From sequence record OP745617: 64,000 nucleotides of DNA; one strand, given 5' to 3'. This DNA comes from Escherichia phage F13. The notes under the pieces were generated by a model. That model searched no databases and was not told where the DNA came from. It worked only from the letters and a program-made list of their open reading frames with translations. This document shows, in pieces, positions 1,547-60,706 of this stretch. Position 1 is the stretch's first letter. Each line of letters opens with the position of its first letter. Made by a program: the position numbers and the translations under genes.

Positions 1547-1761
1547 ATGGCGCGCTGGGTAAGTTGTCTTTCAACAAGCGTAATGAGCTGCGCATGGTGT
1601 CGCGCTTTCAGTTTGTATTGAACGCAATGTCGAATATTGCCATCACGATGCTTCGCGCTGATTGCCCTGCTGAAAAGCGTGAGACTTTATTTGAACGTCA
1701 CAACCAATTACGAAAGGCTGCTTATAAGCTGCAGCAATATGCTATGGAGTATGCAAAATGA
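1543..1761 (+). CDS. hypothetical early protein (72 aa)
   Basis: Internal ATG overlapping upstream stop (ATGA). Confidence 0.4.
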   Translation: MNGALGKLSFNKRNELRMVSRFQFVLNAMSNIAITMLRADCPAEKRETLFERHNQLRKAAYKLQQYAMEYAK

Positions 1762-2141
1762 GAATGAAGCGTTGCCCTTACTGCCACGATGTGATGCACC
1801 TTCCACACGAAGAGTTTGTGCAGCACATGACTAACTGTGATAAGAATCCTAATAGCGAAAGCCAGCTTGAAGAAAGAATGTTCTTGGTGTCATTCAAAGC
1901 TTCTGCTTATGAAGTGCAACGTTCTTACGGCGCACCAAGTACGATTTACTGTCCAACAACATTGAGAAGTGATATCGACTCAATTCAGCTTGCTGCCTGG
2001 ATTAACGTTAAGGAAGGAATCACGCCGCACTTTATTGCGCGCATCCAATCTCAGATTCTACAAATGAAGCGCGAATACAACCGTGACATCACTGAAGTGA
2101 AGGTGTTGTCCATCACGCCAATGAATAAGGAGTTGCCGTGA
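1758..2141 (+). CDS. hypothetical protein with Cys/His cluster (127 aa)
   Basis: ATGA overlap; N-terminal CPYCHDVMHLPHEEFVQHMTNC suggests a zinc-binding motif. Confidence 0.45.
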   Translation: MRMKRCPYCHDVMHLPHEEFVQHMTNCDKNPNSESQLEERMFLVSFKASAYEVQRSYGAPSTIYCPTTLRSDIDSIQLAAWINVKEGITPHFIARIQSQILQMKREYNRDITEVKVLSITPMNKELP

Positions 2142-2398
2142 ACAAGGGTCCGATGACTAAGTTAGCCGTTGCCGCGCGGAAGCTTCGACAAGCCGTTAAT
2201 GGGTCGCGCCCCGTGGTGTTAACACTCGACGACGCAAAGGCACTGGTAGAGCTACTCGACGAGCACAACCGACGCAAGAATCTGGAGAACACATTACGCT
2301 GGCGCGTTACTCCGAAAGGGCGGGAGAGTGAAAAGAAAGCTTACTTGCGACGCAAACTAAGGTCGGTCGGCCTCCACGAAGAGGCGAAGAATATTTAA
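2138..2398 (+). CDS. hypothetical basic protein (86 aa, GTG start)
   Basis: GTG start overlapping upstream stop; Arg/Lys-rich C-terminus. Confidence 0.4.
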   Translation: MNKGPMTKLAVAARKLRQAVNGSRPVVLTLDDAKALVELLDEHNRRKNLENTLRWRVTPKGRESEKKAYLRRKLRSVGLHEEAKNI

Positions 2399-2420
2399 TT
2401 CAAAAAGGTGATCTAAATGC

Positions 2421-2448
2421 TTGCCTTTTTATTTGCCTGTATTATACT
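2421..2448 (+). promoter_or_regulatory. sigma70-like promoter (-35 TTGCCT, 16-bp spacer, -10 TATACT)
   Basis: Second copy of the conserved promoter block; followed by AAGGAG RBS and ATG at 2477. Confidence 0.5.
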
Positions 2449-2476
2449 TAGTTCATCAAGCAAAGGAGATTTGATT

Positions 2477-2779
2477 ATGAGTTACGACGAAAGGTTTGGC
2501 AGAAGTGGATTATTTCACGATGCTGTATGTAAGGACAGCCAAGATGTTGTCTGCGTATTCAACGTTGATTCTTACGGCGTGCTCAAACCGTTTAAAATCG
2601 GTGAGACATACGAATTGTTTCACGGATGGTTGACGCGTCGCAACAACCTTCCTGATATGGAAGTCTGGTGGATAGAATATAAGGGCCAGGCCCATCGCTG
2701 CAAGGTTGTAGAGGTGCGCGGCGTGAACTACTATCAATCTGTTATCAGCGGCTTTGTTTTTAAAGAGGGTGAGCTATGA
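2477..2779 (+). CDS. hypothetical early protein (100 aa)
   Basis: ATG with AAGGAG RBS; the longer ORF start at 2417 lies inside the promoter and is rejected. Confidence 0.45.
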   Translation: MSYDERFGRSGLFHDAVCKDSQDVVCVFNVDSYGVLKPFKIGETYELFHGWLTRRNNLPDMEVWWIEYKGQAHRCKVVEVRGVNYYQSVISGFVFKEGEL

Positions 2780-3081
2780 GTACCGAAGCAATGAAGAAAA
2801 AGATTTTGAACGCTTTGCAAGAAGCCGTGAACTGTGGTGCAATTAAAGAGTTCAAGGAGACGCAAGAAGGCGGTGAGCCAGTATTCTTCTTTAAGAATAA
2901 AAAGGACGGTGTAGCGGCAATCATGCTATTAAAGAATAGTGATGATACATTTATTCTTTGCGTCGGCGGTTACGACCTTGTCACTGATGATGCATTCATC
3001 ACTTGTGTCGACGGCCTTAATCCTATGTTGACATTTGAGCGTCGCGCCATCCGTGTTGCAACGTTTGGAGGGAATTTATGA
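2776..3081 (+). CDS. hypothetical early protein (101 aa)
   Basis: ATGA overlap. Confidence 0.45.
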   Translation: MSTEAMKKKILNALQEAVNCGAIKEFKETQEGGEPVFFFKNKKDGVAAIMLLKNSDDTFILCVGGYDLVTDDAFITCVDGLNPMLTFERRAIRVATFGGNL

Positions 3082-3263
3082 GTACCGAAGTCCATAACGC
3101 TTCAGCAATGGTAAGCTTTTACCGTAACAAAGGCGTGTCACTCGTTAAAACGCCGCAAGGCATGATGTTCTTTGGCACGCGATTCCTTAAGGCTTCGGAG
3201 CGTGAAACGCTGTCCAAGTTTGACCAGAAAACATTGCACGCAGTTTGGAGAAGACAACAATGA
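3078..3263 (+). CDS. hypothetical early protein (61 aa)
   Basis: ATGA overlap. Confidence 0.35.
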   Translation: MSTEVHNASAMVSFYRNKGVSLVKTPQGMMFFGTRFLKASERETLSKFDQKTLHAVWRRQQ

Positions 3264-3553
3264 GATTAAGCCTAGCTCAGATTCAGACATTATATCGCAT
3301 GGAAGACGGCACATCATACATGTTGCGCGGCGACCGCAAGAAGGCTTATGAGAAACGGCCTTCATTGTTTCACGACGTTAACGCGCCATCAATCCCTGTC
3401 TTATTCCGGCTGGGCCTTGTTGACTGGAAAGTGCCAGGAGAGAAAGACCCAACTCGATATTCACCGGTTGTGATGACAAAGAAAGGTCGTGCAGCATTAA
3501 AAGAAATTAAAGAGCATATGGCTGGAGAAAAATACTATGACATCAAATCTTAA
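3260..3553 (+). CDS. hypothetical early protein (97 aa)
   Basis: ATGA overlap; motif GAGAAGACAACAATG also precedes the gene at 3718. Confidence 0.4.
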   Translation: MRLSLAQIQTLYRMEDGTSYMLRGDRKKAYEKRPSLFHDVNAPSIPVLFRLGLVDWKVPGEKDPTRYSPVVMTKKGRAALKEIKEHMAGEKYYDIKS

Positions 3554-6319: not shown

Positions 6320-6690
6320 CATTTGATACGCCTAAAATACGGTTAAAAATTAAGCGTATCATGGCTGCAGGCCGCGCCGTTCCTGGATTCCTCTTTTCCA
6401 AATTGGTACACCCTTACGTCATGATACGTCATGGTTTTTTATCCGTATCAGTGTACAACCCTTGCCGCGCCTGGCTTGTACATTAATCTTACGGATGATA
6501 CGGATAAAACTGAGCATCGTTATATATAGAATTCGAAAAATTAATTAACTCCATTTTAAAAACATTTATATTAATTTTTTTCATATCCTCATACTTATGT
6601 TAATTTATATATTTAACGTATCATCCGTAAGATATAAGTAAAAACAAAGACTTGCGGCAATACGGATGATACGTCATGATACGCTTCAAC
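6320..6690. repeat. iteron-like module: direct and inverted ATCCGTATC / GATACGGAT 9-mers flanking an AT-rich core (copy 1)
   Basis: Repeats read directly (tatccgtatca, ttacggatgatacggat, cgtatcatccgtaag, tacggatgatacgtcatgatacg); AT-rich core 6530-6615; homologous module at 22845-23135. Confidence 0.7.
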
Positions 6691-6874
6691 CAGCCAGCAG
6701 CGGCTAAGTCGTTGATTTGCATAACAAGCGGCAAAAGGGATGGATTTCTTTTATACGTATCAAACAGTACACCACGCACCACGGTCCGTTATCCATTCAG
6801 CAATATGATTTGTGTACGTTTATAGCCATAATGAACATCAATCTGCACTTGAATATAATGTCCATCCATTGTAT

Positions 6875-8095
6875 AATTCACACTATTAATTTGCACTATG
6901 GGATTTTGCACTATGAGTCAAGATTATGTAGCGATGCCTGAAGACTTTGAAGACCCGCGATTCGCAGAGCACAATCAGGCTTTATTCGATGAGTTCATTG
7001 ACCTTGTTATTCAGGGTCATGACATGCGCGCAGCTTTTGCACTAGTATTTGGAATGGAAGTTGCAACGGATAACTACACTGGCCAGCGAATCCTTTGCAC
7101 GCAACGCAATCCATACTACAAGATGCGCTTCAAAAAGCGTATGGAAGAGATGCCACTCAAGGATTTGTGGAGCGTAAAAGGTGCAATTCACAATTTGGTT
7201 AAGCTTGTTCGTGATCCAGAAGTCGCGGCGTCAGCCAAGCTTAATGCTATTCGTGAACTGAATATCATCTACGGCATCACGATGATTGATGAAAACGGCA
7301 ATAGTAAAATGGGCCGTTCCATGGACGATTTCTACAAGGATTTTGGAGAGGCGGCCAAAGAAGGTGAGCAATTCTCCCGCCACTAGCCAATTTGCACTAT
7401 AAAACGGCCCTAGAACACATTTTCTCCAATTCTAGGGCCATCGGTAATACGACGGGGAAGGTTACAAACATAAACGCGTTAGAAAGTGTATTATTATAAG
7501 TCATCTTTTAGTCACCTTACGTAACAATTTACGACCTTCAACCGTCCAATCGAACGACTCCACCAGCAGATTCGCACTATAACCTAAGACGATGCGTCCC
7601 TTCTCGTTATCGACCCGCCAACAAGTCTCGAATAGCATTCGATTTGCACTATTAACTATTGCCGCAACTCGCGTAGGATAAGCGCAATTTGAACTATGGT
7701 CGTAAAGGGATAAGGTGCGACCACTTCCGATGGACAACGTAGCGATGAGAATGAGCGTATTCATAAGCCACCAATTTGCACTATGAAAAGCGACCCCGAA
7801 GGGCCGCCATTCGATTAGATAATCTGGAAGGTATAGGATTTGTTGCCGAACTCAAAGTTCAAGCGCCCAGCTTCCTTAAGCTTCATGCGGAAGCGAATGT
7901 GCTTGCTATCCGGCAAGCCCAGCACGGCGAACGCTACGCGGACCGATTTGAACTCGCCTACACCCTCGACCATAACGCCGTTACGGGTGAGACGCTTTTG
8001 CGCCACTTCCTTATTATCCCAACTTTTTGCAATACCTTCGCTATTCGAACGGCGATGGGAAGGAGTTCCATTTTGCACTACGCAATTTGCACTAT
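6875..8095 (+). repeat. array of about 10 copies of the 12-bp motif (A/G)ATTTGCACTAT, all on the plus strand
   Basis: Copies at 6875, 6888, 6903, 7389, 7569, 7641, 7686, 7773, 8071, 8083 (some with one mismatch). Confidence 0.7.
6898..7386 (+). CDS. hypothetical protein (157-162 aa); speculative small terminase or DNA-binding protein
   Basis: ORF starting inside the first motif copies (alternative ATG at 6913); the terminase idea is only from size and the adjacent repeat array. Confidence 0.4.
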   Translation: MGFCTMSQDYVAMPEDFEDPRFAEHNQALFDEFIDLVIQGHDMRAAFALVFGMEVATDNYTGQRILCTQRNPYYKMRFKKRMEEMPLKDLWSVKGAIHNLVKLVRDPEVAASAKLNAIRELNIIYGITMIDENGNSKMGRSMDDFYKDFGEAAKEGEQFSRH

Positions 8096-8441
8096 CGTTT
8101 AGACCGCTCTTAACGAAGGCTTCATACTCTTCGTCGGTCATCGCGTCGAGTTCTTCCTGGGTCGGCTCGGCCTTTTTAACGACCGCACGCGCCTTATGCG
8201 TTTTTACATCGCTGGACACTTCCTCGCGCGACTTCGCTTCGGGGATGGGCGATTCGTTGGACGGCTCATCGAGCGCGTTTAAGGACTCGATTAACGCGAT
8301 TACGCGAGTCTCGGCGGTACGGCGGTCCGCAAATTTCTTAATCGGCTTCGAACCGGAATTTGCATTATAAAATGCAACGAGGTCGGCGGTCTTAGTTGCG
8401 ATAACGTCGCCGCTAGTCGAGAAACGATTTAAGCTAACCAT
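7815..8441 (-). CDS. hypothetical protein (208 aa)
   Basis: Protein-like composition (acidic stretch EEELDAMTDEEYEAF); the antisense plus-strand ORF looks like a shadow. Confidence 0.45.
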   Translation of the reverse strand: MVSLNRFSTSGDVIATKTADLVAFYNANSGSKPIKKFADRRTAETRVIALIESLNALDEPSNESPIPEAKSREEVSSDVKTHKARAVVKKAEPTQEELDAMTDEEYEAFVKSGLNDSANCVVQNGTPSHRRSNSEGIAKSWDNKEVAQKRLTRNGVMVEGVGEFKSVRVAFAVLGLPDSKHIRFRMKLKEAGRLNFEFGNKSYTFQII

Positions 8442-8521
8442 AATGAACTCCTATTTGTTAGGGCGCTAGGCGCGAAAGAATTTTATTAAAGCGCCGCGCA
8501 CGACGCTCTAAAAATCCTCTC

Positions 8522-8806
8522 TTACGCTTCGACGAGGGAGAAGGTCTCAAATTCTTCTTCGCCCATAACGAGTAAGATGTTACCGATTTCGACCGCTTCG
8601 AAGAAGTATCCGTTAACGTTTACTTCGAAGGCTTCGCGGTCCGATTCCGGTAACGCCGCGTAAAGTTTAAAAGCCTCGGCGACCGTTACCCCACCCGCCT
8701 CGATGGTCTGGTCTACGTTCGCGGCGTAGACTTCGGATAAAATTTGTTTTACGCCGTAGTTCTCGACGATAGCGTTACGGATGGAAGAAACGTTAAGAAT
8801 AGCCAT
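8522..8806 (-). CDS. small protein (94 aa), paralog family member
   Basis: Aligns with the 9744..10034 product (SxIR, VY..NVD..IE, NG[YF].[FY]..EIG); own promoter upstream. Confidence 0.5.
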   Translation of the reverse strand: MAILNVSSIRNAIVENYGVKQILSEVYAANVDQTIEAGGVTVAEAFKLYAALPESDREAFEVNVNGYFFEAVEIGNILLVMGEEEFETFSLVEA

Positions 8807-8874
8807 TTTAAACTCCTAGTTGGGAGAGGCGTTAACGACCTATTCGCTAACTCATCCCGTCCCGATATGAGTAC

Positions 8875-8902
8875 ATTATAATATAGTGTAGAAAAAAGTA
8901 AA
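8875..8902 (-). promoter_or_regulatory. sigma70-like promoter on minus strand (-35 TTTACT, 16-bp spacer, -10 TATAAT)
   Basis: Reverse complement of 8875-8902; inverted copy of the promoter module at 9345-9373. Confidence 0.5.
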
Positions 8903-8946
8903 GCACTTTTTCGATAAAAATGCGATAAATTATTTTATCTTTTTTC

Positions 8947-8974
8947 TTTACTTCTTCGTACACTCGCGTATACT
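8947..8974 (+). promoter_or_regulatory. sigma70-like promoter (-35 TTTACT, 16-bp spacer, -10 TATACT)
   Basis: Diverges from the minus-strand promoter; drives the gene at 9031. Confidence 0.45.
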
Positions 8975-9030
8975 TGTTTATATCGAGACGGGCGATGGCC
9001 CTTCCTTCTACTAGCATCGGGAGCTTTATT

Positions 9031-9333
9031 ATGACTACTTTAATCTCTTCCATCCTTACTTACGACGAAGACCGTTTAACCGTTCGCTCTCTTATCGCCG
9101 CCGTTAACGCCGAACTAGAATCTAGCGCCATTAAGGTCCGCGCGGTTGCCTTCGTCGGTCTTTCCTTCGACGATATCAAGTACGCCGAACGTAGCGCCAT
9201 CCGCTTCGCGAAGACCGACGACGAAGCCGTTACCCTTATCGAGACGGTTACTCCGCGCGGCGAAACGTTAATTATCGTCGAGTATATCGACGTAGAAGGC
9301 GATAAGGCTTATAAATATTTTATCGCAAAATAA
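9031..9333 (+). CDS. small protein (100 aa), probable distant member of the same paralog family
   Basis: ATG with GGGAG RBS; 3' 200 bp of this gene is duplicated in the tandem repeat. Confidence 0.5.
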   Translation: MTTLISSILTYDEDRLTVRSLIAAVNAELESSAIKVRAVAFVGLSFDDIKYAERSAIRFAKTDDEAVTLIETVTPRGETLIIVEYIDVEGDKAYKYFIAK

Positions 9334-9744
9334 CGAAAAAGTGCTTTACTTCTTAGTACACTAAGACTATAATGTTTTATATCGAGAGGGGATGAGGTAG
9401 CGAATAGGTCGCTACCCTCCCGACTAACTAGGAGAATATTACGCGCGGTTGCCTTCGTCGGTCTTTCCTTCGACGATATCAAGTACGCCGAACGTAGCGC
9501 CATCCGCTTCGCGAAGACCGACGACGAAGCCGTTACCCTTATCGAGACGGTTACTCCGCGCGGCGAAACGTTAATTATCGTCGAGTATATCGACGTAGAA
9601 GGCGATAAGGCTTATAAATATTTTATCGCAAAATAACGAAAAAGTGCTTTACTTCTTAGTACACTAAGACTATAATGTTTTATATCGAGAGGGGATGAGG
9701 TAGCGAATAGGTCGCTACCCTCCCGACTAACTAGGAGAATATTA
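9139..9744. repeat. tandem direct duplication, 2 x 303 bp (9139-9441 and 9442-9744)
   Basis: Near-identical units read directly; each carries the gene 3' end, promoter (TTTACT-17-TATAAT at 9345-9373 and 9648-9676), leader hairpin and RBS. Confidence 0.85.
9442..9639 (+). pseudogene. promoter-less 3' fragment of gene 9031..9333 created by the tandem duplication
   Basis: Copy of the C-terminal coding part; at the junction the RBS is followed by ACG rather than ATG. Confidence 0.5.
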
Positions 9745-10034
9745 TGATCACTTTATCCGCTATCCGTGCCGCTCGCGTCGAAACTTCCGAAAACTCTAAC
9801 GTATTTGGCGAAACCTTAGAGAGCGTTTATCTCTCTAACGTTGACGCGATTATCGAGTCTATTTATGAGCCGATCAACTTCCTCGACCTTTACAAGTATC
9901 GCGATGAGGACATCGTGTCCTACCGCGTAACGATTAACGGCTTCGTTTATACGATTACCGAAATCGGCGGCGAATATCTCGCTGTACCGCAACTCGGCGG
10001 CGAAGTAACTTACTTTAAAATCGTAAGCCTTTAA
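9744..10034 (+). CDS. small protein (96 aa), paralog of 8522..8806
   Basis: AGGAG RBS; clear alignment to the 8522..8806 product. Confidence 0.55.
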   Translation: MITLSAIRAARVETSENSNVFGETLESVYLSNVDAIIESIYEPINFLDLYKYRDEDIVSYRVTINGFVYTITEIGGEYLAVPQLGGEVTYFKIVSL

Positions 10035-10045
10035 GGAGAAGAAAA

Positions 10046-10255
10046 ATGATTAATATGAATAACTCTCTTAACGCGCGCGCCCATCGCACCGCCGTCATCG
10101 ATATGTTCCGTGAGCTTAAGGACTTATGCGATAATATGAACGCGATGTTATCCATCGGCGGCTGGGGATACGAAGAAGAAGTTAAATATGCGGTTATGCG
10201 TCGCCGTCGCGATAACGTCCTTGGGCAAATTAAACGCGCCGGATTATTCCTTTAA
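10046..10255 (+). CDS. hypothetical small basic protein (69 aa)
   Basis: ORF with AAGGAG RBS; RRRRD motif. Confidence 0.4.
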   Translation: MINMNNSLNARAHRTAVIDMFRELKDLCDNMNAMLSIGGWGYEEEVKYAVMRRRRDNVLGQIKRAGLFL

Positions 10256-10281
10256 TTATAATCAACCACCGTTACTAATAG

Positions 10282-10306
10282 GCCGCGCTTAGTCGCGGCT
10301 TTTCTT
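10282..10306 (+). terminator. Rho-independent terminator
   Basis: GCCGCG-cttagt-CGCGGC stem-loop followed by TTTTCTT. Confidence 0.6.
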
Positions 10307-10419
10307 CGTCCCTATCTCGGTGCGCTCCTACGCGAAAACTCCTTTATCCTTCCCTTCGTCGTCGCATAATCTTCGTCGATATGCGCCTTAGTTCGCATAA
10401 CAGGTATTACGTTAAATGG

Positions 10420-10960
10420 AGAACATCGCGTAAGTCCTTGTTTTATATAGACACCTATATCGGACCGTTAGGGCGGGTCGCGTAAGTCGTTGTTTTATAA
10501 AGGCGCAAAACTTTCCCTTCGTTCCGAACTAAAACGAGGAATATGCCGACCCTTCGTCCGAAAATAGTACGCATGCGAAATTACATGCATCTAGAATAAT
10601 CCCCACAGATATTATCCTACACGCAATCATTCGCTTTCGAATCATTATGCTTCATATTATTATGCGTCGAATCATTCGCTTTCGAATTGTAACGCTGGAA
10701 ACTGTAACGGCGATTGATTATTGCGTTCGTGTGGTTTTTATGGCATGGGTCTTTTGGTGCGTTTTGCTACTTGATGGAATTTGCGGTACACTAATCAAAA
10801 TACGACACATTTAGTCTACTAACTTTTCAAAGAAAAAGTCCTGGACAGTACCGTACTATTTTGTACCCACAGGAAATTTGCAGTACACTCCTGCGCGCGG
10901 CAGGCAAAATAAAGGGCCGCACCAAGCGACCCACGATTCACGATTCACGGTTAAAGCAAC
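10420..10960. repeat. noncoding region with several short direct repeats
   Basis: cgcgtaagtc(c/g)ttgttttata x2 (10425-10500), aatcattcgctttcgaat x2 (10628-10700), ggaa(a)tttgc(g/a)gtacact x2 (10774, 10872), cacgattcacgattcacgg (10934). Confidence 0.6.
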
Positions 10961-12507: not shown

Positions 12508-14817
12508 TTATTTTGCTGATTTCAGCGCGGCTATCTCTGCCTTGAGTTCACCTATCTGATCCATGAGTGCAAGAATAGCCTCGTGGTGCAATGCCGCTGC
12601 CACTCCGTAAGTGTCGACTGATTTGACATCCTTGACCACGGTCCCATCAGCCAGTTCCATATCACCTGAAACAGAAACGGCTTCTGGGAAATCAACCTCA
12701 ACATCTTGAGCCACGAATCCAAAACCTACTTTCGCGCCGTCAGTTTTCAATCGCCATGACACGCCATTAATCCTTTTCATCTTGGTCAATGGGTCTTGAA
12801 TCTTGACAATCTCATCCTTGATTCTGACGTCTGAAGAAGTACCCCAACCGCCAGCGCAAACAGCATTACCTGCTTGCAGGAATTGGAAATACTTGTTGGT
12901 GCCTACACCGCCAGCAGTAGTGGTCATTATGGTCACATCGCCATTACGCTCAGAATATACCCGACCATACGTTGCTGTGTTGGCACTGTTCTTAAAATCG
13001 ATGAACGATTGGTTGTTGGTGTTTCCAATGAACGTCGCTTGACCGCCGCGAGTTATCAACTGGCCTTTTGCATCAACGTTCCCAGAGCTGGTGATCAAGT
13101 TATTTGGCACAAGCAAGTTGCCGTTGTCGACAAAATCGAATGCCTGGCTGGCGGCAGTCGTCAAATTGGTAACGGTCAATCGCATGTAATAAGCGCCACC
13201 GATAACAGCGCGAATGCGCATGCGACCTTCAGCCTCAACAGCAGTCCCCACTCGATACTCCGACATGACGCTGCCGCCGTCAGCGGTCGTGCCTGGACCT
13301 GGCATTGCCGTATCGCCGTTTATAACAGACCATTGCGTATTCGCCGCTGTGAATCCACCGGATGCACGAATCACCCAAACGCCTGAAAAGTTGCGCGGCA
13401 ATACTTCATCTGTTGCAAGGTTGTTACGACCGTAAGCTGGGCTTGAGTTAGAAGCTCTTAGCGCAACGCTTCCCAAAGAGTTCGCACCAGAACTTAAAAG
13501 CGAAACACCTCTTACATATCGCGGAATGGTGAATCCTTCTCCATTGATGAATGCGCCGCCAGCACCTGCGACAACCGTTCCTGATGCTGGTTCACTTGCA
13601 GGGCCGGACCCGTGGAAGTTGATGTTGCCAGTGATGTTTGGCAGGAAGGATTCCATTATCATTCCGTCATTTGACGAGTTGCCGCCATCGCCACGGGCAA
13701 AAAGTGCACGAACACTTCCTGTCTGAACGCCGTTACGGTCTGGAACACGGAATGTTGTTGTTCCGTTGCCTAAAGAATACTTTCCGCGCTTCAGCGGGTC
13801 AGCCAACCAATCTGCATCAGCAATAGGCGTAAGCATTTGCGCATAAGCCCAAAGCTCAGGCCAGTCTGCACGGTTAAGCAATTGTCCGTCGGCAACAACT
13901 TCATACGACTGAATATAGGCGCGACTGTCGCGCAGGTGAAAGTCACCAACGCCATAGTTCATTACGCCGTTCATGCTTGGGCCAACGGTGCCAGTATTTA
14001 CTAAGTTCTCAACCCAACGCTTCGTCGCGGCATCATAATCATTGACGGGGTCGCCAGCCAGTGGTGTTGAGCCTTGTGGACGAATATTCAACCATGCTTG
14101 CGCATTGTCTGCTGATCCTGTGCCGCCCATGGAAGTTGGAACGATGCTCTGATCAGCAACAGGGCCAAATCCAAAGGCATCTTTCATTCCCTGAATAGTC
14201 GTTTGACCTGTGCCGCCGTTTGCAATTGGAATTGTGCTTTGTGAACTATAAATTTGCGCCCAAGGCGACCATGAAGATGTTTCAGCATTGTACCTTCTTT
14301 GGTACAAGTTATTTGAGTTGAATGTGGTGTATCTTTGAATGCAACTTTCCAAAGATATGGCAGTCTGCAGGACTTCCAATATCCCAGCTTCCAAGGCTAC
14401 TGGATAGTTGAGGGATGTCTGCGCAGCAGCATTTGAATATTGGTAATATTGCCCAAACCAAGTTCCAGTCAAAGAGTTCAGATTTATCCCCGACGGCAAA
14501 AGTCCAAAATTCCTGACAGTATTGGTCAAAGATGCGGCAGTTGTTCGAATGGAAAGCATGTCGCCTGCCGCCCATGCGCGCGCTGCAGTTCCTTCCTGTG
14601 CACGCTGCACAGTCAGGACGTTCCCAACCACGGCTGTTACAGTGATGATTTCAAATTGGAGGCCTGTTGCAGCGTCGACGATTGTCGCCACTACACGCTC
14701 GTTTGCACCCAAGGTCGGAAAGCCCGACCCTGAGCGGATTGTGATTGTGGTGTCTGAAGTCGTCGCTGGCTGAGCGAGCGCGACCTCAAAGTTGTTTTTG
14801 AATATTAGCCTTGGCAT
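12508..14817 (-). CDS. tail fiber or tailspike with C-terminal intramolecular chaperone (peptidase S74-like) domain
   Basis: 769 aa; C-terminus SSDVRIKDEI...GVSWRLK...GFVAQDV...LKAEIAALK is typical of the self-cleaving chaperone domain of fibers and endosialidases. Confidence 0.8.
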   Translation of the reverse strand: MPRLIFKNNFEVALAQPATTSDTTITIRSGSGFPTLGANERVVATIVDAATGLQFEIITVTAVVGNVLTVQRAQEGTAARAWAAGDMLSIRTTAASLTNTVRNFGLLPSGINLNSLTGTWFGQYYQYSNAAAQTSLNYPVALEAGILEVLQTAISLESCIQRYTTFNSNNLYQRRYNAETSSWSPWAQIYSSQSTIPIANGGTGQTTIQGMKDAFGFGPVADQSIVPTSMGGTGSADNAQAWLNIRPQGSTPLAGDPVNDYDAATKRWVENLVNTGTVGPSMNGVMNYGVGDFHLRDSRAYIQSYEVVADGQLLNRADWPELWAYAQMLTPIADADWLADPLKRGKYSLGNGTTTFRVPDRNGVQTGSVRALFARGDGGNSSNDGMIMESFLPNITGNINFHGSGPASEPASGTVVAGAGGAFINGEGFTIPRYVRGVSLLSSGANSLGSVALRASNSSPAYGRNNLATDEVLPRNFSGVWVIRASGGFTAANTQWSVINGDTAMPGPGTTADGGSVMSEYRVGTAVEAEGRMRIRAVIGGAYYMRLTVTNLTTAASQAFDFVDNGNLLVPNNLITSSGNVDAKGQLITRGGQATFIGNTNNQSFIDFKNSANTATYGRVYSERNGDVTIMTTTAGGVGTNKYFQFLQAGNAVCAGGWGTSSDVRIKDEIVKIQDPLTKMKRINGVSWRLKTDGAKVGFGFVAQDVEVDFPEAVSVSGDMELADGTVVKDVKSVDTYGVAAALHHEAILALMDQIGELKAEIAALKSAK

Positions 14818-59860: not shown

Positions 59861-60706
59861 TTATTCCGCTTGATCACCGTCTTCGGCATTGTCGTTGGAT
59901 TCAACATCGACAAACTCGATGTGGCCCATCTCTTCCAGCTTGCTCAGGTAGGAGCGAACGGAAGCGCCAAACAGTTGATCTTTAACTTTTTCGCCCAGCT
60001 CATCGATAGACTGCGCCACGCCAACTTCGCCTTCTTTGATCGCCGCCAGAACGCGTCCACGGGTGGAATGCTCTTGCGGCTGGCTCAGGCCATTGCCGGT
60101 GTAGATGAAGTGAGTGGCTTTTGCACGACGCTGACCGTTTGCCTTTTTAGCAGCCTTGCGCTCTGCGATGGCTTTGCGACGTTCTTCAGCTTCTTTCTTA
60201 CGCTGTTCTTTCTGCTGTTCTGCAGCTTCTTTAGCCGCAATCTTAGCAGCTTCACGCTCTGCCTTGCGTTTCGCTTTAGCTTCTTCTTTGGCCTTCTCTT
60301 TTTCGGCCTTCGCTGCAGCACGGGCTTGATCACGCTCTGCTTTCTTGGCCGCAGCCTGCTCAGCTTTCAGGCGCTTGGCTTCTTCTTTAGCCTTTGCCTT
60401 TTCGATTTCTTTTGCTGCTTTAGCGGCTTCACGCTCTGCTTTCTTAGCAGCAGCCTTTTCTGCACGCTCTTTAGCTTTCTTAGCTGCTTCTTCAGCACGC
60501 TTCTGCGCCTTCTCATCAGCAGCCTGCTTGCGTTTCAGCGCAGCTTCTTCACGCTTGGCTTGTTTTTCCTGCTCACGCTTCTGGCGCTTCTCTTCGGCTT
60601 CTTTCTTTTTAGCCAGGCGTTTTTCTTCAGCCACGCGACGACGTTCTGCTGCGGCTGCTTGTTTTTCTTCTTTAGATAATACTTTGATTGCTTCGGCCAT
60701 ATTCAC
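59861..60706 (-). CDS. Lys/Ala/Glu-rich low-complexity protein with C-terminal globular domain
   Basis: 281 aa; about 190 aa of KEA-rich helix then about 80 aa of ordinary sequence; opposite-strand ORF is a shadow. Confidence 0.5.
   Translation of the reverse strand: MNMAEAIKVLSKEEKQAAAAERRRVAEEKRLAKKKEAEEKRQKREQEKQAKREEAALKRKQAADEKAQKRAEEAAKKAKERAEKAAAKKAEREAAKAAKEIEKAKAKEEAKRLKAEQAAAKKAERDQARAAAKAEKEKAKEEAKAKRKAEREAAKIAAKEAAEQQKEQRKKEAEERRKAIAERKAAKKANGQRRAKATHFIYTGNGLSQPQEHSTRGRVLAAIKEGEVGVAQSIDELGEKVKDQLFGASVRSYLSKLEEMGHIEFVDVESNDNAEDGDQAE

Follow-up and report, generated by a model that had tools for sequence, protein, structure and literature searches.

Organisation of the terminal repeat and its genes

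The window analysed here, the whole 64,000 nt stretch of Escherichia phage F13, is of Wifcevirus origin with 100% identity to Escherichia phage SP13, and includes a segment matching the SP13 record at both of its ends, a direct terminal repeat (DTR) of ~3.9 kb (Table 1). In an alignment, position 1 of Mansfield corresponds to window position 6553, and a DTR of 3,673 bp was predicted for Mansfield by PhageTerm (PMC6753283). The block flagged in a preliminary description of this DNA occupies the right 60% of the DTR, and its location there has support in the literature (PMC6753283, PMC6588376).

Table 1. Features of the direct terminal repeat (window coordinates)
Feature	Position	Strand	Remarks
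Direct terminal repeat (DTR)	6553..10754		includes 303-bp duplication specific to the present sequence
ATTTGCACTAT motif array, n=11, single orientation	6876..8368	+	fills left, non-depleted part of DTR
Transition zone, partial depletion	7400..8099		about 10 CA/TG per 100 nt
Chi site GCTGGTGG	7560..7567	-	oriented to stop RecBCD arriving from left genome end
Terminator-like hairpin GCGGCCC-TTCG-GGGTCGC + TTTTCAT	7783..7807	-	closes leftward operon; read from sequence
208-aa core early protein, phrog_4730	7815..8441	-	island boundary inside gene
CA/TG-depleted island core	8100..10560		CA/TG 0.30x, CG 1.98x, TA 1.79x rest of genome
94-aa acidic protein, net charge -12	8522..8806	-	paralog of 96-aa protein; missing in some strains
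Leader hairpin GTTAGCG-AATAGGT-CGTTAAC (variant)	8831..8851	-	sequence; inverted repeat
Leftward early promoter (predicted), TTTACT-N16-TATAAT	8875..8902	-	consensus match
Rightward early promoter (predicted), TTTACT-N16-TATACT	8947..8974	+	consensus match
100-aa acidic protein, net charge -5	9031..9333	+	without detectable kinship to 94-aa and 96-aa proteins
Duplication copy 1	9139..9441	+	3' 195 nt of 100-aa gene, promoter and leader
Promoter copy 1 (predicted), TTTACT-N17-TATAAT	9345..9373	+	consensus match
Leader hairpin copy 1, GGTAGCG-AATAGGT-CGCTACC	9396..9416	+	sequence
Duplication copy 2	9442..9744	+	drives 96-aa gene
Promoter copy 2 (predicted), TTTACT-N17-TATAAT	9648..9676	+	consensus match
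Leader hairpin copy 2, GGTAGCG-AATAGGT-CGCTACC	9699..9719	+	sequence
96-aa acidic protein, net charge -8	9744..10034	+	paralog of 94-aa protein
69-aa basic protein, phrog_10377	10046..10255	+	annotated 'transcriptional regulator'; missing in some strains
Intrinsic terminator, rightward operon	10280..10301	+	scan
Non-coding island tail, CA/TG-poor (o/e 0.38)	10302..10560		two 25-nt repeats: 10426-10450, 10478-10502
AATCATTCGCTTTCGAAT-type repeats	10609..10696	+	between island and right DTR boundary

The three ORFs of ~95 aa listed in the preliminary description are present on the strands shown in Table 1, and the proposed paralogy holds for the 94-aa and 96-aa proteins (28% identity, E=1e-5), but not for the 100-aa protein, which had no similarity to the other two in BLASTP and an hhalign probability of 0.2%. 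The 100-aa protein lacks Gln, His, Cys and Trp altogether and has Met only at its start. The block also carries the 208-aa and 69-aa genes, and conservation of the 208-aa protein reaches the Pseudomonas Pbunavirus group. The small acidic proteins gave no match in family, defence-library or fold searches, no recognisable nuclease is encoded in the island, and cassette content differs from strain to strain among the related phages compared. A host-takeover or anti-defence role of these proteins is plausible: all are short ORFans with a strongly acidic character (net charge -5 to -12), they belong to variable cassettes, and they lie behind strong predicted σ70-type promoters in a terminal repeat.

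The repeated promoter modules and the leader hairpin described previously were both recovered, the hairpin in two identical copies and a minus-strand variant, with a stem that covaries with the version found in Serratia phage MTx (GGGCG-AATAGGT-CGCCC). However, the promoter modules at 9345 and 9648 cannot be counted separately, since each belongs to one copy of an exact 303-bp tandem duplication. Neither the SP13 record, identical in all other respects, nor the 27 further Wifcevirus records nor IMG/VR contains it. As a consequence of this duplication, promoter copy 1 now reads into a gene fragment lacking a start codon. The promoter consensus is GC-TTTACT-N16/17-TATAAT followed by a conserved start region (TTATATCGARA), in some cases with a 5' leader hairpin, and the -35 box was TTTACT or TAGACT in all 14 promoters from three genera, with TTGACA in none. 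The terminator-like hairpin closing the leftward operon was not listed by the consensus terminator scan.

Dinucleotide signature of the island

Dinucleotide usage in 1-kb sliding windows differed sharply from that of the rest of the window, as had been proposed, with observed/expected (o/e) ratios for 8001-10500 of 2.0-2.1 for CpG, 1.1-1.4 for TpA, 0.28-0.44 for TpG and 0.24-0.44 for CpA, against about 1.1, 0.65 and 1.2 elsewhere. The designation as a CpG-rich island captures the increase in CG, but the anomaly is an exchange of CA/TG for CG plus TA at a flat GC content (0.46-0.475, no shift relative to the rest of the genome). The island core contains 4.4 CA/TG per 100 nt compared with 14.3 genome-wide, while the other seven dinucleotide classes are at 0.93-1.12x, so that only pyrimidine-purine steps are altered. 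Depletion was found in every sequence context and is strongest for the trinucleotide CAG/CTG (0.08x). About 95 CA/TG are still present in the Wifcevirus island, and those kept within functional motifs include ATG start codons, the TACACT promoter spacer and TATAATGT.

The depletion is not a codon-usage effect. It applies to coding and non-coding DNA, to both strands, to codon junctions and to -35 boxes, with o/e ratios of 0.27-0.43 in intergenic DNA, upstream of promoters and downstream of terminators, and sense-strand CA and sense-strand TG are both low in genes of either orientation. The island genes contain 7-48 CA/TG where 30-77 are expected (z -4.5 to -6.8; none of 2000 synonymous resamples was as low), and their proteins have 0.25-0.5x the Gln, His, Cys and Trp content of the reference proteome. 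The left island edge falls within the 208-aa gene, of which the 5' half is depleted and the 3' half is not (o/e 0.82 for CA, 0.88 for TG), and depletion is therefore positional rather than gene by gene. The left 1.5 kb of the DTR is unaffected, or even TG-rich.

Recurrence in other lineages and selection on the signature

Comparable islands are present in four other lineages, each adjoining the homologous core gene at the equivalent place: Kylevirus (with Pantoea phage PA1 and a Kylevirus from IMG/VR as examples of this type), Serratia phage MTx, the Logan contig L215 and the unrelated metagenomic contig L099. The signature, promoter type and position recur, with the island located inside the DTR in 3/3 genera with known ends and ending 150-200 bp before its right boundary, and the island proteins are unrelated across at least four lineages sharing the signature. 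In L215 the island has 11 CA/TG in 1241 nt, three of these being ATG start codons, and repeat arrays of the same AATCATTCGCTTTCGAAT-like kind were seen in both PA1 and L215. In MTx and L099, one gene is present as a copy of normal composition together with a CA/TG-free copy.

Substitutions in the island were compared with those in the flanks among 11 Wifcevirus genomes. Changes creating CA/TG made up 24% of the transitions in the island where 41% were possible (p=7e-8), and 9% of the transversions where 25% were possible (p=9e-9), while the flanks fitted the neutral expectation. This avoidance of new CA/TG is seen within the island and is missing from its flanks, and we conclude that the signature is upheld locally and was not brought in from elsewhere. 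In the 5' half of the 208-aa gene, recent polymorphisms created CA/TG at the neutral rate, which indicates that selection per site is weak in Wifcevirus.

These data do not support the earlier proposal of a laterally acquired, moron-like block still bearing the dinucleotide signature of its donor, and we consider such an origin extremely improbable. The composition boundaries are sharp, single small genes are present or absent between strains, promoters serve the genes singly or in pairs and terminators close both operons, all as expected of an imported block, but the GC content is that of the rest of the genome, one boundary lies inside a core gene, unrelated proteins carry the signature in several genera and CA/TG is still being selected against. 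To our knowledge, no genome combines a rho(CG) of about 2 with a rho(CA/TG) of about 0.3.

A context-dependent mutational bias of the DTR, for instance through extra replication or repair synthesis duplicating the repeat, might convert CA/TG into CG and TA without any selection, and would match the confinement of the island to the DTR in every lineage with known ends; in principle, the scarcity of CA/TG-creating changes could also reflect the mutation spectrum. Such a bias would require two elevated types of transition (A to G following C, and C to T preceding A, each on either strand), and would have to spare the leftmost 1.5 kb of the DTR, the normal gene copies located next to CA/TG-free ones in L099 and MTx, and the CA/TG inside start codons, the promoter spacer and TATAATGT, which makes it very unlikely.

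Possible reasons for the exclusion of CA/TG

To the anatomy and to a signature that is conserved and under selection, the reading which we prefer, and to which we assign about an even chance, adds early timing, an action at the level of DNA and a responsible agent, all three of which we infer. The block would be an early gene module in the DTR, akin to the modules for pre-early functions or host takeover in other phages, in which divergent, strong σ70-type promoters may drive the variable small, mostly very acidic ORFans and the conserved 208-aa protein, and may be read by unmodified host RNA polymerase directly from the incoming virion DNA. Long-term selection on the duplex would minimise CA/TG, with pyrimidine-purine steps becoming CG or TA, at the price of favoured codons (such as CTG), of the consensus -35 sequence TTGACA, and of Gln, His, Cys and Trp. 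The island may be the sole stretch of the genome needed as template immediately on entry, and an agent acting via CA/TG-containing sites would then disable it. One candidate agent is an undescribed base modification that virion DNA would carry at sites containing CA/TG and from which the early template has to be free; the other is a nuclease or DNA-binding activity of host or phage origin, present before the remaining genome gains protection. No DNA-modification gene was found in the genome, which encodes a ThyX-type thymidylate synthase and a kinase-like protein identified as PNKP-HAD, and has no annotated methyltransferase. A model in which every CA/TG blocks expression is hard to reconcile with the lack of depletion in the 3' half of the 208-aa gene.

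Selection might instead act on mRNA, with early transcripts free of UG and CA surviving an endoribonuclease specific for short motifs with these dinucleotides, either a toxin of the host or an RNase by which the phage shuts off its host; mRNAs lacking ACA withstand MazF, of which this would be the natural counterpart. The island largely coincides with two strongly promoted transcription units (as judged from predicted promoters), the depletion of coding sequences is extreme and extends to the amino-acid level, and the pairs of normal and CA/TG-free genes would fit expression while ordinary mRNAs are destroyed. Nevertheless we regard this as unlikely: CA and UG are both low on the sense strand whichever the gene orientation, depletion is equal in the DNA preceding the -35 boxes and 150-260 bp past the terminators, TG and CA are avoided even within the -35 hexamers, and the 3' half of the 208-aa mRNA would be left unprotected. 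We know of no RNase with a dual CA and UG specificity.

Generalised avoidance of restriction, in which type I, II or III sites have been purged from DNA that is exposed ahead of the synthesis of anti-restriction proteins, as for T5 first-step-transfer DNA and the T7 leading end, is in our view quite improbable. Many enterobacterial type I and III recognition sites hold TG or CA, and the island is free of EcoRI, EcoAI and EcoP15I sites, with a single Dcm/EcoRII site; Wifceviruses are sensitive to EcoP1_I only, which recognises AGACC, a sequence without CA/TG that occurs 10 times in the island, in both orientations. However, EcoRV and EcoKI sites are kept in the island, GAATTC is frequent in the MTx island, CA/TG occurs in just 25% of palindromic hexamers on combinatorial grounds while enrichment of CG and TA raises the number of remaining sites, and the residual CA/TG are a poor fit to a model in which one site is lethal. 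The EcoRI and EcoRV sites, neither of which contains CA/TG, number 15 and 7 in the genome, yet the phages resist both enzymes, so a CA/TG-directed modification alone cannot explain the restriction phenotype.

The Chi sites bear on a further alternative, in which the metabolism of DNA ends in the DTR (RecBCD/Chi, recombination or priming) selects against, for example, Chi-like TG-rich sequences or DnaG CTG sites in DNA that becomes single-stranded when repeats anneal or recombine. Relatives have 4-9 Chi sites clustered at the position equivalent to that of the single site in Table 1, and in PA1, Kylevirus, MTx and L215 these clusters, in one orientation and with a TG>>CA strand bias, directly adjoin the island. 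Among the lineages with an assigned host (all but L099), island and Chi clusters were found only in those with enterobacterial hosts, and Chi is specific to enteric bacteria; the extreme depletion of CAG/CTG points the same way. Against this, CA/TG is depleted in all contexts rather than in CTG or Chi fragments alone, the terminal parts of the DTR, which would be the first to become single-stranded, lie outside the island, and we know of no property of RecBCD, RecA or DnaG that reads a bare dinucleotide, so that the chances of this explanation also appear slim. The orientation of the Chi clusters suggests that the left genome end is the exposed one; the island would then enter last within the DTR, not first, which counts against the early-module reading preferred here.

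Comparison with known systems

The pre-early region of T5 (first-step-transfer DNA, in a 10.2-kb terminal repeat) resembles the putative early module described here in having early genes within a long DTR, strong and divergent host-type promoters, numerous small ORFans, repeat arrays at the inner repeat edge comparable to the T5 injection stop signal, a broad and unexplained resistance to restriction, and a compositionally distinct repeat (T5 CpG rho 1.35 inside versus 0.74 outside). It differs in that homologs of A1, A2 and dmp were not found here, the T5 repeat shows no CA/TG depletion (rho 0.93), and the present repeat is merely 3.6-3.9 kb. In this comparison, two-step DNA transfer is known for T5 only. 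The host-takeover module in the terminal redundancy of SPO1 (by its description) and the leading end of T7, with the A1-A3 promoters and gene 0.3 (ocr), combine a cluster of strong early promoters with small proteins that disable host functions or defences and are expressed from the DNA first put to use, an arrangement that the island may share. The small proteins of the island share the very acidic character of Ocr but neither its sequence nor its fold (the latter judged from a low-confidence model), and CA/TG is at a normal level over the leading 12 kb of T7. The anti-defence islands in the leading regions of conjugative plasmids are also comparable, with variable small genes of anti-defence type, dedicated promoters, and DNA placed for expression immediately after entry, although here this is duplex phage DNA and not a plasmid strand with single-strand promoters, and we know of no dinucleotide exclusion in plasmid leading regions.

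Why selection should keep an island of small, probably early genes almost free of CA/TG in these phages is apparently undescribed. The closest parallel in kind is the avoidance of motifs by phages, such as that of restriction sites or of ACA in MazF-resistant mRNAs, where a short sequence is likewise purged via synonymous and even non-synonymous changes; what sets the present case apart is that the target is a bare dinucleotide pair, removed from both strands of a ~2-kb block with exact compensation by CG and TA.

A CA/TG-depleted island in the terminal repeat

The window is a circularly permuted genome of a Wifcevirus (PB1-like E. coli myoviruses); its identity is 100% to Escherichia phage vB_EcoM_SP13 (OP352608) and 92-97% to 27 further records. 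The SP13 record matches window positions 6553-10754 at both of its ends, and position 6553 aligns with position 1 of phage Mansfield, for which a direct terminal repeat (DTR) of 3,673 bp was predicted by PhageTerm (PMC6753283); the DTRs of Mansfield and of Serratia phage MTx used here are both PhageTerm predictions (PMC6753283; PMC6588376). Since the SP13 ends and the Mansfield start map to these positions, the segment at 7800-10560, which a preliminary description had flagged for its composition, occupies the right-hand 60% of the DTR, with its right limit approximately 190 bp short of the DTR boundary. The DTR also includes the gene for the small terminase subunit, according to the HHpred annotation of phage Mansfield, and virion DNA therefore contains this gene in two copies.

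The preliminary description had reported a visibly different dinucleotide usage in this segment, and sliding GC and dinucleotide analysis bore this out, with a difference far stronger than described. The GC content was 0.46-0.475 inside the island and equal outside. In 1-kb windows covering 8001-10500, the observed/expected (o/e) ratios were 2.0-2.1 for CpG, 1.1-1.4 for TpA, 0.28-0.44 for TpG and 0.24-0.44 for CpA, versus approximately 1.1, 0.65, 1.2 and 1.2, respectively, in the rest of the 64 kb, and no 1-kb window outside 8001-10500 approached the island values. When the ten strand-symmetric dinucleotide classes were compared with the genome outside the DTR, CA/TG was present at 0.30x, TA at 1.79x and CG at 1.98x, with the other seven classes at 0.93-1.12x and the total of pyrimidine-purine steps being the same. 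The island swaps CA/TG for both self-complementary pyrimidine-purine steps (CG and TA), and the original label of a CpG-rich island therefore understates the pattern.

The most depleted trinucleotide in the island was CAG/CTG (0.08x), and the strong core at 8100-10560 contained 4.4 CA/TG per 100 nt versus 14.3 genome-wide, with a weaker depletion at 7400-8100. The left edge of the island falls inside the gene for a 208-aa protein, as the o/e ratios of CA and TG were 0.33 and 0.55 in the 5' half of this gene, and 0.82 and 0.88 in its 3' half. A constant island length was rejected, since the length ranges from 1.6 to 2.5 kb and tracks cassette content.

Genes, promoters and leaders of the island

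The genes and predicted signals of the island, together with other elements discussed below, are listed in the table.

Features of the island and of its surroundings (window coordinates)
Feature	Position	Strand	Remark
ATTTGCACTAT array	6876-8368	+	11 motifs in a single orientation, left DTR part
Small terminase subunit gene	6898-7386	+	
Chi site	7560-7567	-	only Chi in the DTR
Terminator-like hairpin	7807-7783	-	end of leftward operon
208-aa gene	8441-7815	-	leftward operon
94-aa gene	8806-8522	-	leftward operon
Promoter TTTACT-N16-TATAAT	8902-8875	-	head of leftward operon
Promoter TTTACT-N16-TATACT	8947-8974	+	head of rightward operon
100-aa gene	9031-9333	+	rightward operon
Tandem duplication, 303 bp	9139-9441 and 9442-9744		exact copies
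Second rightward promoter TTTACT-N17-TATAAT		+	followed by the 96-aa and 69-aa genes
96-aa gene	9744-10034	+	
69-aa gene	10046-10255	+	
Terminator	10280-10301	+	end of rightward operon
GAATCATTCG-like repeat array	10609-10696		between island terminator and right DTR boundary
GGAATTTGCGGTACACTAATC / GAAATTTGCAGTACACTCC	10780-10800, 10875-10895		just beyond right DTR boundary
281-aa gene (phrog_4765)	59861-60706	-	Lys/Glu/Ala-rich, low-complexity protein

Four TTTACT-N16/17-TATAAT/TATACT sites are found inside 800 bp, representing a predicted cluster of strong promoters for the host sigma factor. The -35 box of all 14 predicted early promoters in three genera was TTTACT, once TAGACT, and TTTACT is the consensus TTGACA minus exactly its TG and its CA. 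The leader hairpin GGTAGCG-AATAGGT-CGCTACC was present as previously described, with a variant in the leftward leader, and Serratia phage MTx combines the identical loop with another stem, GGGCG/CGCCC. The stem thus appears to covary between the two phages, as judged by inspection only, because RNAalifold gave no consensus on six leaders, which were misaligned. An Rfam search of the leaders matched no known RNA family, and a reading of GTGCTTTACT as MotA box was rejected because of wrong spacing and unconserved upstream bases.

The small genes had been proposed to be driven by separate promoter modules. TTTACT-type promoters are indeed present, but two of the modules are not independent, being copies within an exact 303-bp tandem duplication that takes in 195 nt from the 3' end of the 100-aa gene as well as the promoter and leader, and leaves a promoter and leader reading into a gene fragment without start codon. 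The duplication was absent from the otherwise identical SP13, the 27 other Wifcevirus records and IMG/VR, and represents either a very recent event or an assembly artefact. The island behaves like a variable cassette array, with the 94-aa or 69-aa gene missing in some strains, and an extra CA/TG-poor 50-aa gene located between the 100-aa and 96-aa genes in phage ECO71P1 (L090 2785-2937), and also in RCIP0363 and AV128.

Proteins encoded in the island

Three of the small proteins had been described as paralogs, which was only two-thirds right: paralogy holds for the 94-aa and 96-aa proteins (28% identity, E=1e-5), but the 100-aa protein is not detectably related, as it gave no alignment with either and an hhalign probability of 0.2%. 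When 1.84 billion representative proteins were searched exhaustively by HMMER, the 94/96-aa profile recovered only four small relatives. Two of these represent the clusters to which the 96-aa and 94-aa proteins belong, and the other two are more distant; all are of the 94/96-aa type and none of the 100-aa type. The small island proteins of the Kylevirus and MTx phages showed no significant similarity to this family (hhalign probability 2% with their acidic proteins). None of the five island genes belongs to a Pfam family, and comparison of the small proteins with Pfam, PHROGs, PADLOC and PDB gave nothing useful, with no Pfam or PHROG match of the T5 A1, A2 or dmp kind. The net charge is -12 for the 94-aa, -8 for the 96-aa and -5 for the 100-aa protein, with the 69-aa protein being basic (+3), and homologous islands in other genera encode proteins with charges down to -18. 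Small size and strong acidity are shared with DNA mimics of the Ocr/ArdA type, for which no Pfam match was found. The AF2 model of the 96-aa protein was of low confidence (pLDDT 61), and Foldseek gave no PDB match with E<0.5. The 208-aa protein is phrog_4730, a core gene in Pbunavirus, Xylella, Ralstonia and Vibrio phages; its single-sequence AF2 model was unusable (pLDDT 41), and its profile matched nothing among PDB sequences.

Outside the island, the 281-aa protein is probably a coiled coil. Its gene accounts for the composition at 60-61 kb, where the AT skew is -0.39 and the GpC o/e reaches 2.0, and for the long spurious antisense ORFs.

Conservation of the island in other phage lineages

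Loci around homologs of the 208-aa gene were fetched and scanned for composition. Pantoea phage PA1 and an IMG/VR Kylevirus contain an island with rho(CG) 1.95 and rho(CA/TG) 0.32, and Serratia phage MTx (Myosmarvirus) has a sharp-edged island with rho(CG) 1.98 and rho(CA/TG) 0.22, with the promoter type and conserved start sequence of the Kylevirus and MTx islands being as in the window. The island covers 1606-3406 of the 3603-bp DTR in the Kylevirus contig and 1622-3422 of the predicted 3,566-bp DTR in MTx, and in both cases ends 150-200 bp before the right DTR boundary, as does the island in the window. Nothing comparable was present within 10 kb in Pbunavirus Ab27, Xylella phage MATE2 and approximately 60 other relatives.

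A Logan contig (L215), reached via a relative of the 96-aa protein, contains only 11 CA/TG in 1241 nt of island versus approximately 175 expected at genome-wide density; ATG start codons account for three of the 11, and the conserved promoter spacer TACACT for one more. The 103-aa and 125-aa proteins of this contig have zero Gln, His, Cys and Trp residues, and no internal Met. A scan for the promoter pattern also gave a chance find of a metagenomic contig encoding a family-A DNA polymerase (L099, IMGVR_UViG_3300025296_000303), which had no relative among 50,697 phage records, and of which the terminal 780 nt (12600-13382) are CA/TG-free. The 74-aa gene in this segment (6 CA/TG in 225 nt) is a 68%-identical paralog of an adjacent 79-aa gene of normal composition (26 in 240 nt), and both have TTTACT-type promoters, with iteron-like repeats in between. 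A similar pair in MTx contains 16 CA/TG in 507 nt in the CA/TG-free paralog versus 74 in 636 nt in the normal gene. Such pairs suggest that CA/TG-free coding is needed for expression at this place or at a particular time.

Selection against CA and TG

For each island gene, 2000 synonymous resamples were made with the genome's own codon usage, which predicted 30-77 CA/TG per gene versus 7-48 observed (z -4.5 to -6.8), with the observed number being below the minimum of the 2000 resamples in every island gene. The island proteins contain Gln, His, Cys and Trp at only 0.25-0.5x the level of the reference proteome. Inspection of the 100-aa gene showed that pyrimidine-ending codons take C before G and T before A, so that the rule spans codon junctions. 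Non-coding pieces of the island, including the stretch between the divergent -35 boxes and 150-260 bp past the terminators, were as depleted as the genes (o/e 0.27-0.43), and sense-strand CA and TG were both low whichever the orientation of the gene. Codon optimisation is thus rejected, since the best Leu codon, CTG, is avoided, and codon junctions and non-coding DNA follow the rule too; a shift in GC content is rejected since GC is the same inside and outside.

In an alignment of 11 Wifcevirus genomes, only 57/238 transitions in the island created CA/TG (24%, versus 41% possible; p=7e-8), as did 19/211 transversions (9%, versus 25% possible; p=9e-9), while observed and possible fractions agreed in the left part of the DTR and the right flank. 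The 5' half of the 208-aa gene contains the youngest polymorphisms, which created CA/TG at the neutral rate, and selection per site in Wifcevirus is therefore weak and long-acting. A simple mutational bias was rejected, as it would require two different context-dependent transitions, the depletion does not extend to the left part of the DTR, and functional motifs have kept their CA/TG.

The CA/TG signature is selected, not imported. The segment had initially been interpreted as a laterally acquired, moron-like block, and the island does have its own promoters and terminators, as a moron would. However, GC content is unchanged, the edge lies inside the 208-aa core gene, the signature is under selection, and every one of the 28 Wifcevirus records contains the block, as do other genera; lateral transfer is therefore rejected, and the moron interpretation is wrong.

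Repeat arrays and Chi sites in the terminal repeats

Repeat arrays are located on both sides of the island, and the left part of the DTR, which adjoins it, has a very different organisation. The ATTTGCACTAT array starts at the end of the CA/TG-free island and encloses the small terminase gene, with only one degenerate match in the other 60 kb, and is kept in other Wifceviruses, in PA1 (at least 12 copies, L005 6611-7566) and in the Logan contig (6 copies, L215 4210-5164). Possible roles are those of a terminase/pac site, of an operator array or of an element that stops injection, and the early-promoter spacer contains a related core, (G)TACACT(A). The GAATCATTCG-like arrays were found between the island terminator and the right DTR boundary in three lineages (also L005 4140-4340 in PA1 and L215 7225-7470), a position like that of the injection stop signal which T5 has where its terminal repeat meets the rest of the genome. 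The GGAATTTGCGGTACACTAATC / GAAATTTGCAGTACACTCC sequences have a conserved PA1 counterpart, TTAGTGTACGGTGAATTTC (L005 3620 and 4081), and could be a phage-specific promoter or operator combining ATTTGC and TACACT cores.

Chi sites (GCTGGTGG) form single-orientation clusters in the left DTR of PA1 (7), the Kylevirus contig (9), MTx (4) and the Logan contig (6), with the clusters at L005 6322-7894, L015 10027-11744, L023 15839-16936 and L215 4145-5382 in regions that display a strong bias of TG over CA on one strand (e.g. 43 versus 8 per 250 nt). The DTR of the window contains only one Chi site, and the 64 kb contain 5 versus 1.2 expected. Clustered Chi sites in this orientation are read by RecBCD when it enters from the left end of the genome, which suggests exposure of that end to RecBCD. 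The island would enter the cell first if the right end leads, or last within the repeat if the left end leads as in T5.

Possible causes of the CA/TG avoidance

The avoidance is strand-symmetric, extends to non-transcribed DNA and -35 boxes, and has a positional edge inside a gene, and thus points to a reader of duplex DNA. Escape at the RNA level from an endoribonuclease is a weaker rival, as is a link to end metabolism (RecBCD/Chi, priming). Literature searches returned nothing relevant on CA/TG depletion in phages, and as far as these show such exclusion has not been described; there is a substantial chance that it reflects something categorically new.

We tentatively propose, as a rather unlikely reading, an unrecognised reader of CA/TG, with as most attractive candidate an undiscovered base modification at CA/TG-containing sites of virion DNA. 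This would help to account for the restriction resistance of Wifceviruses, and the island would then be an unmodifiable 'clean template' for transcription of the first genes by host RNA polymerase. The favoured model has two versions, and in the first such a modification would be added late, and only genes necessarily read from incoming DNA would stay free of modifiable sites. Promoters, leaders and terminators would then be expected to follow the rule, but not later genes, which are transcribed from newly replicated DNA. Against this, we found no modification enzyme, and the phages resist EcoRI and EcoRV, the sites of which lack CA/TG. A thymidine hypermodification pathway was rejected, since the synthase is ThyX rather than a ThyA-type hydroxymethylase; the ThyX neighbours are PNKP-HAD, SDR and MazG, to which PHROGs adds nothing.

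In the second version, a host or phage nuclease or DNA-binding activity may act through CA/TG-containing sites while only island DNA must function, akin to the breakdown of host DNA during T5 infection. Against this, there is no recognisable nuclease in the island. Plain avoidance of restriction sites was rejected, because EcoRV, EcoKI and ten EcoP1I sites persist in the island, which is thus not restriction-site-free leading DNA, EcoRI sites are abundant in the MTx island, and CA/TG occurs in only 1/4 of palindromic hexamers. Enrichment of the H-NS nucleation motif TCGATAAATT was likewise rejected, as it was not above a dinucleotide-preserving shuffle.

The exclusion is so strict that proteins lose Gln, His, Cys, Trp and internal Met, and as a sign of selection it is unusually strong and clean. 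A non-consensus -35 box is a further consequence, the exclusion persists across several phage genera, and whatever reads CA/TG has to be either a major hazard or a major feature when infection by these phages begins. Knowing the agent could explain why Wifceviruses withstand almost every restriction system tested although no mechanism that protects them is known, and could lead to a DNA modification or a host activity that is new. The genome of Wifcevirus vB_Eco4M-7 has already been assembled in vitro (PMC11074155). If the proposal is true, CA/TG-free zones mark DNA needed immediately on entry and can be found by composition alone in genomes and metagenomes, and such searches would reveal immediate-early modules and their anti-defence genes in uncultured phages.

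Comparison with early modules of known phages

The anatomy of the island gives good support to its reading as an early module, most likely matching those in terminal repeats or leading ends, such as the T5 pre-early region, the SPO1 host-takeover module and T7 gene 0.3; a search of papers yielded neither transcriptome nor functional data on it. Common to these and the island are the location in a long DTR, as for modules of the T5 FST/SPO1 type, divergent strong σ70-type promoters (predicted in the island), and tiny acidic ORFans of which the set differs between strains. They also share an element that is conserved both where transcription starts and within the promoter spacer, and that could act as operator when the genes are later shut off. 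Early anti-defence proteins are one candidate explanation. The leading end of T7 has normal CA/TG, unlike the island. In T5, the terminal repeat (L094 1-10219) has a CpG rho of 1.35 and a GpC rho of 1.57, versus 0.74 and 1.09 in the next 10 kb, and this step in composition coincides with the repeat boundary, but unlike in the island CA/TG is not depleted there.
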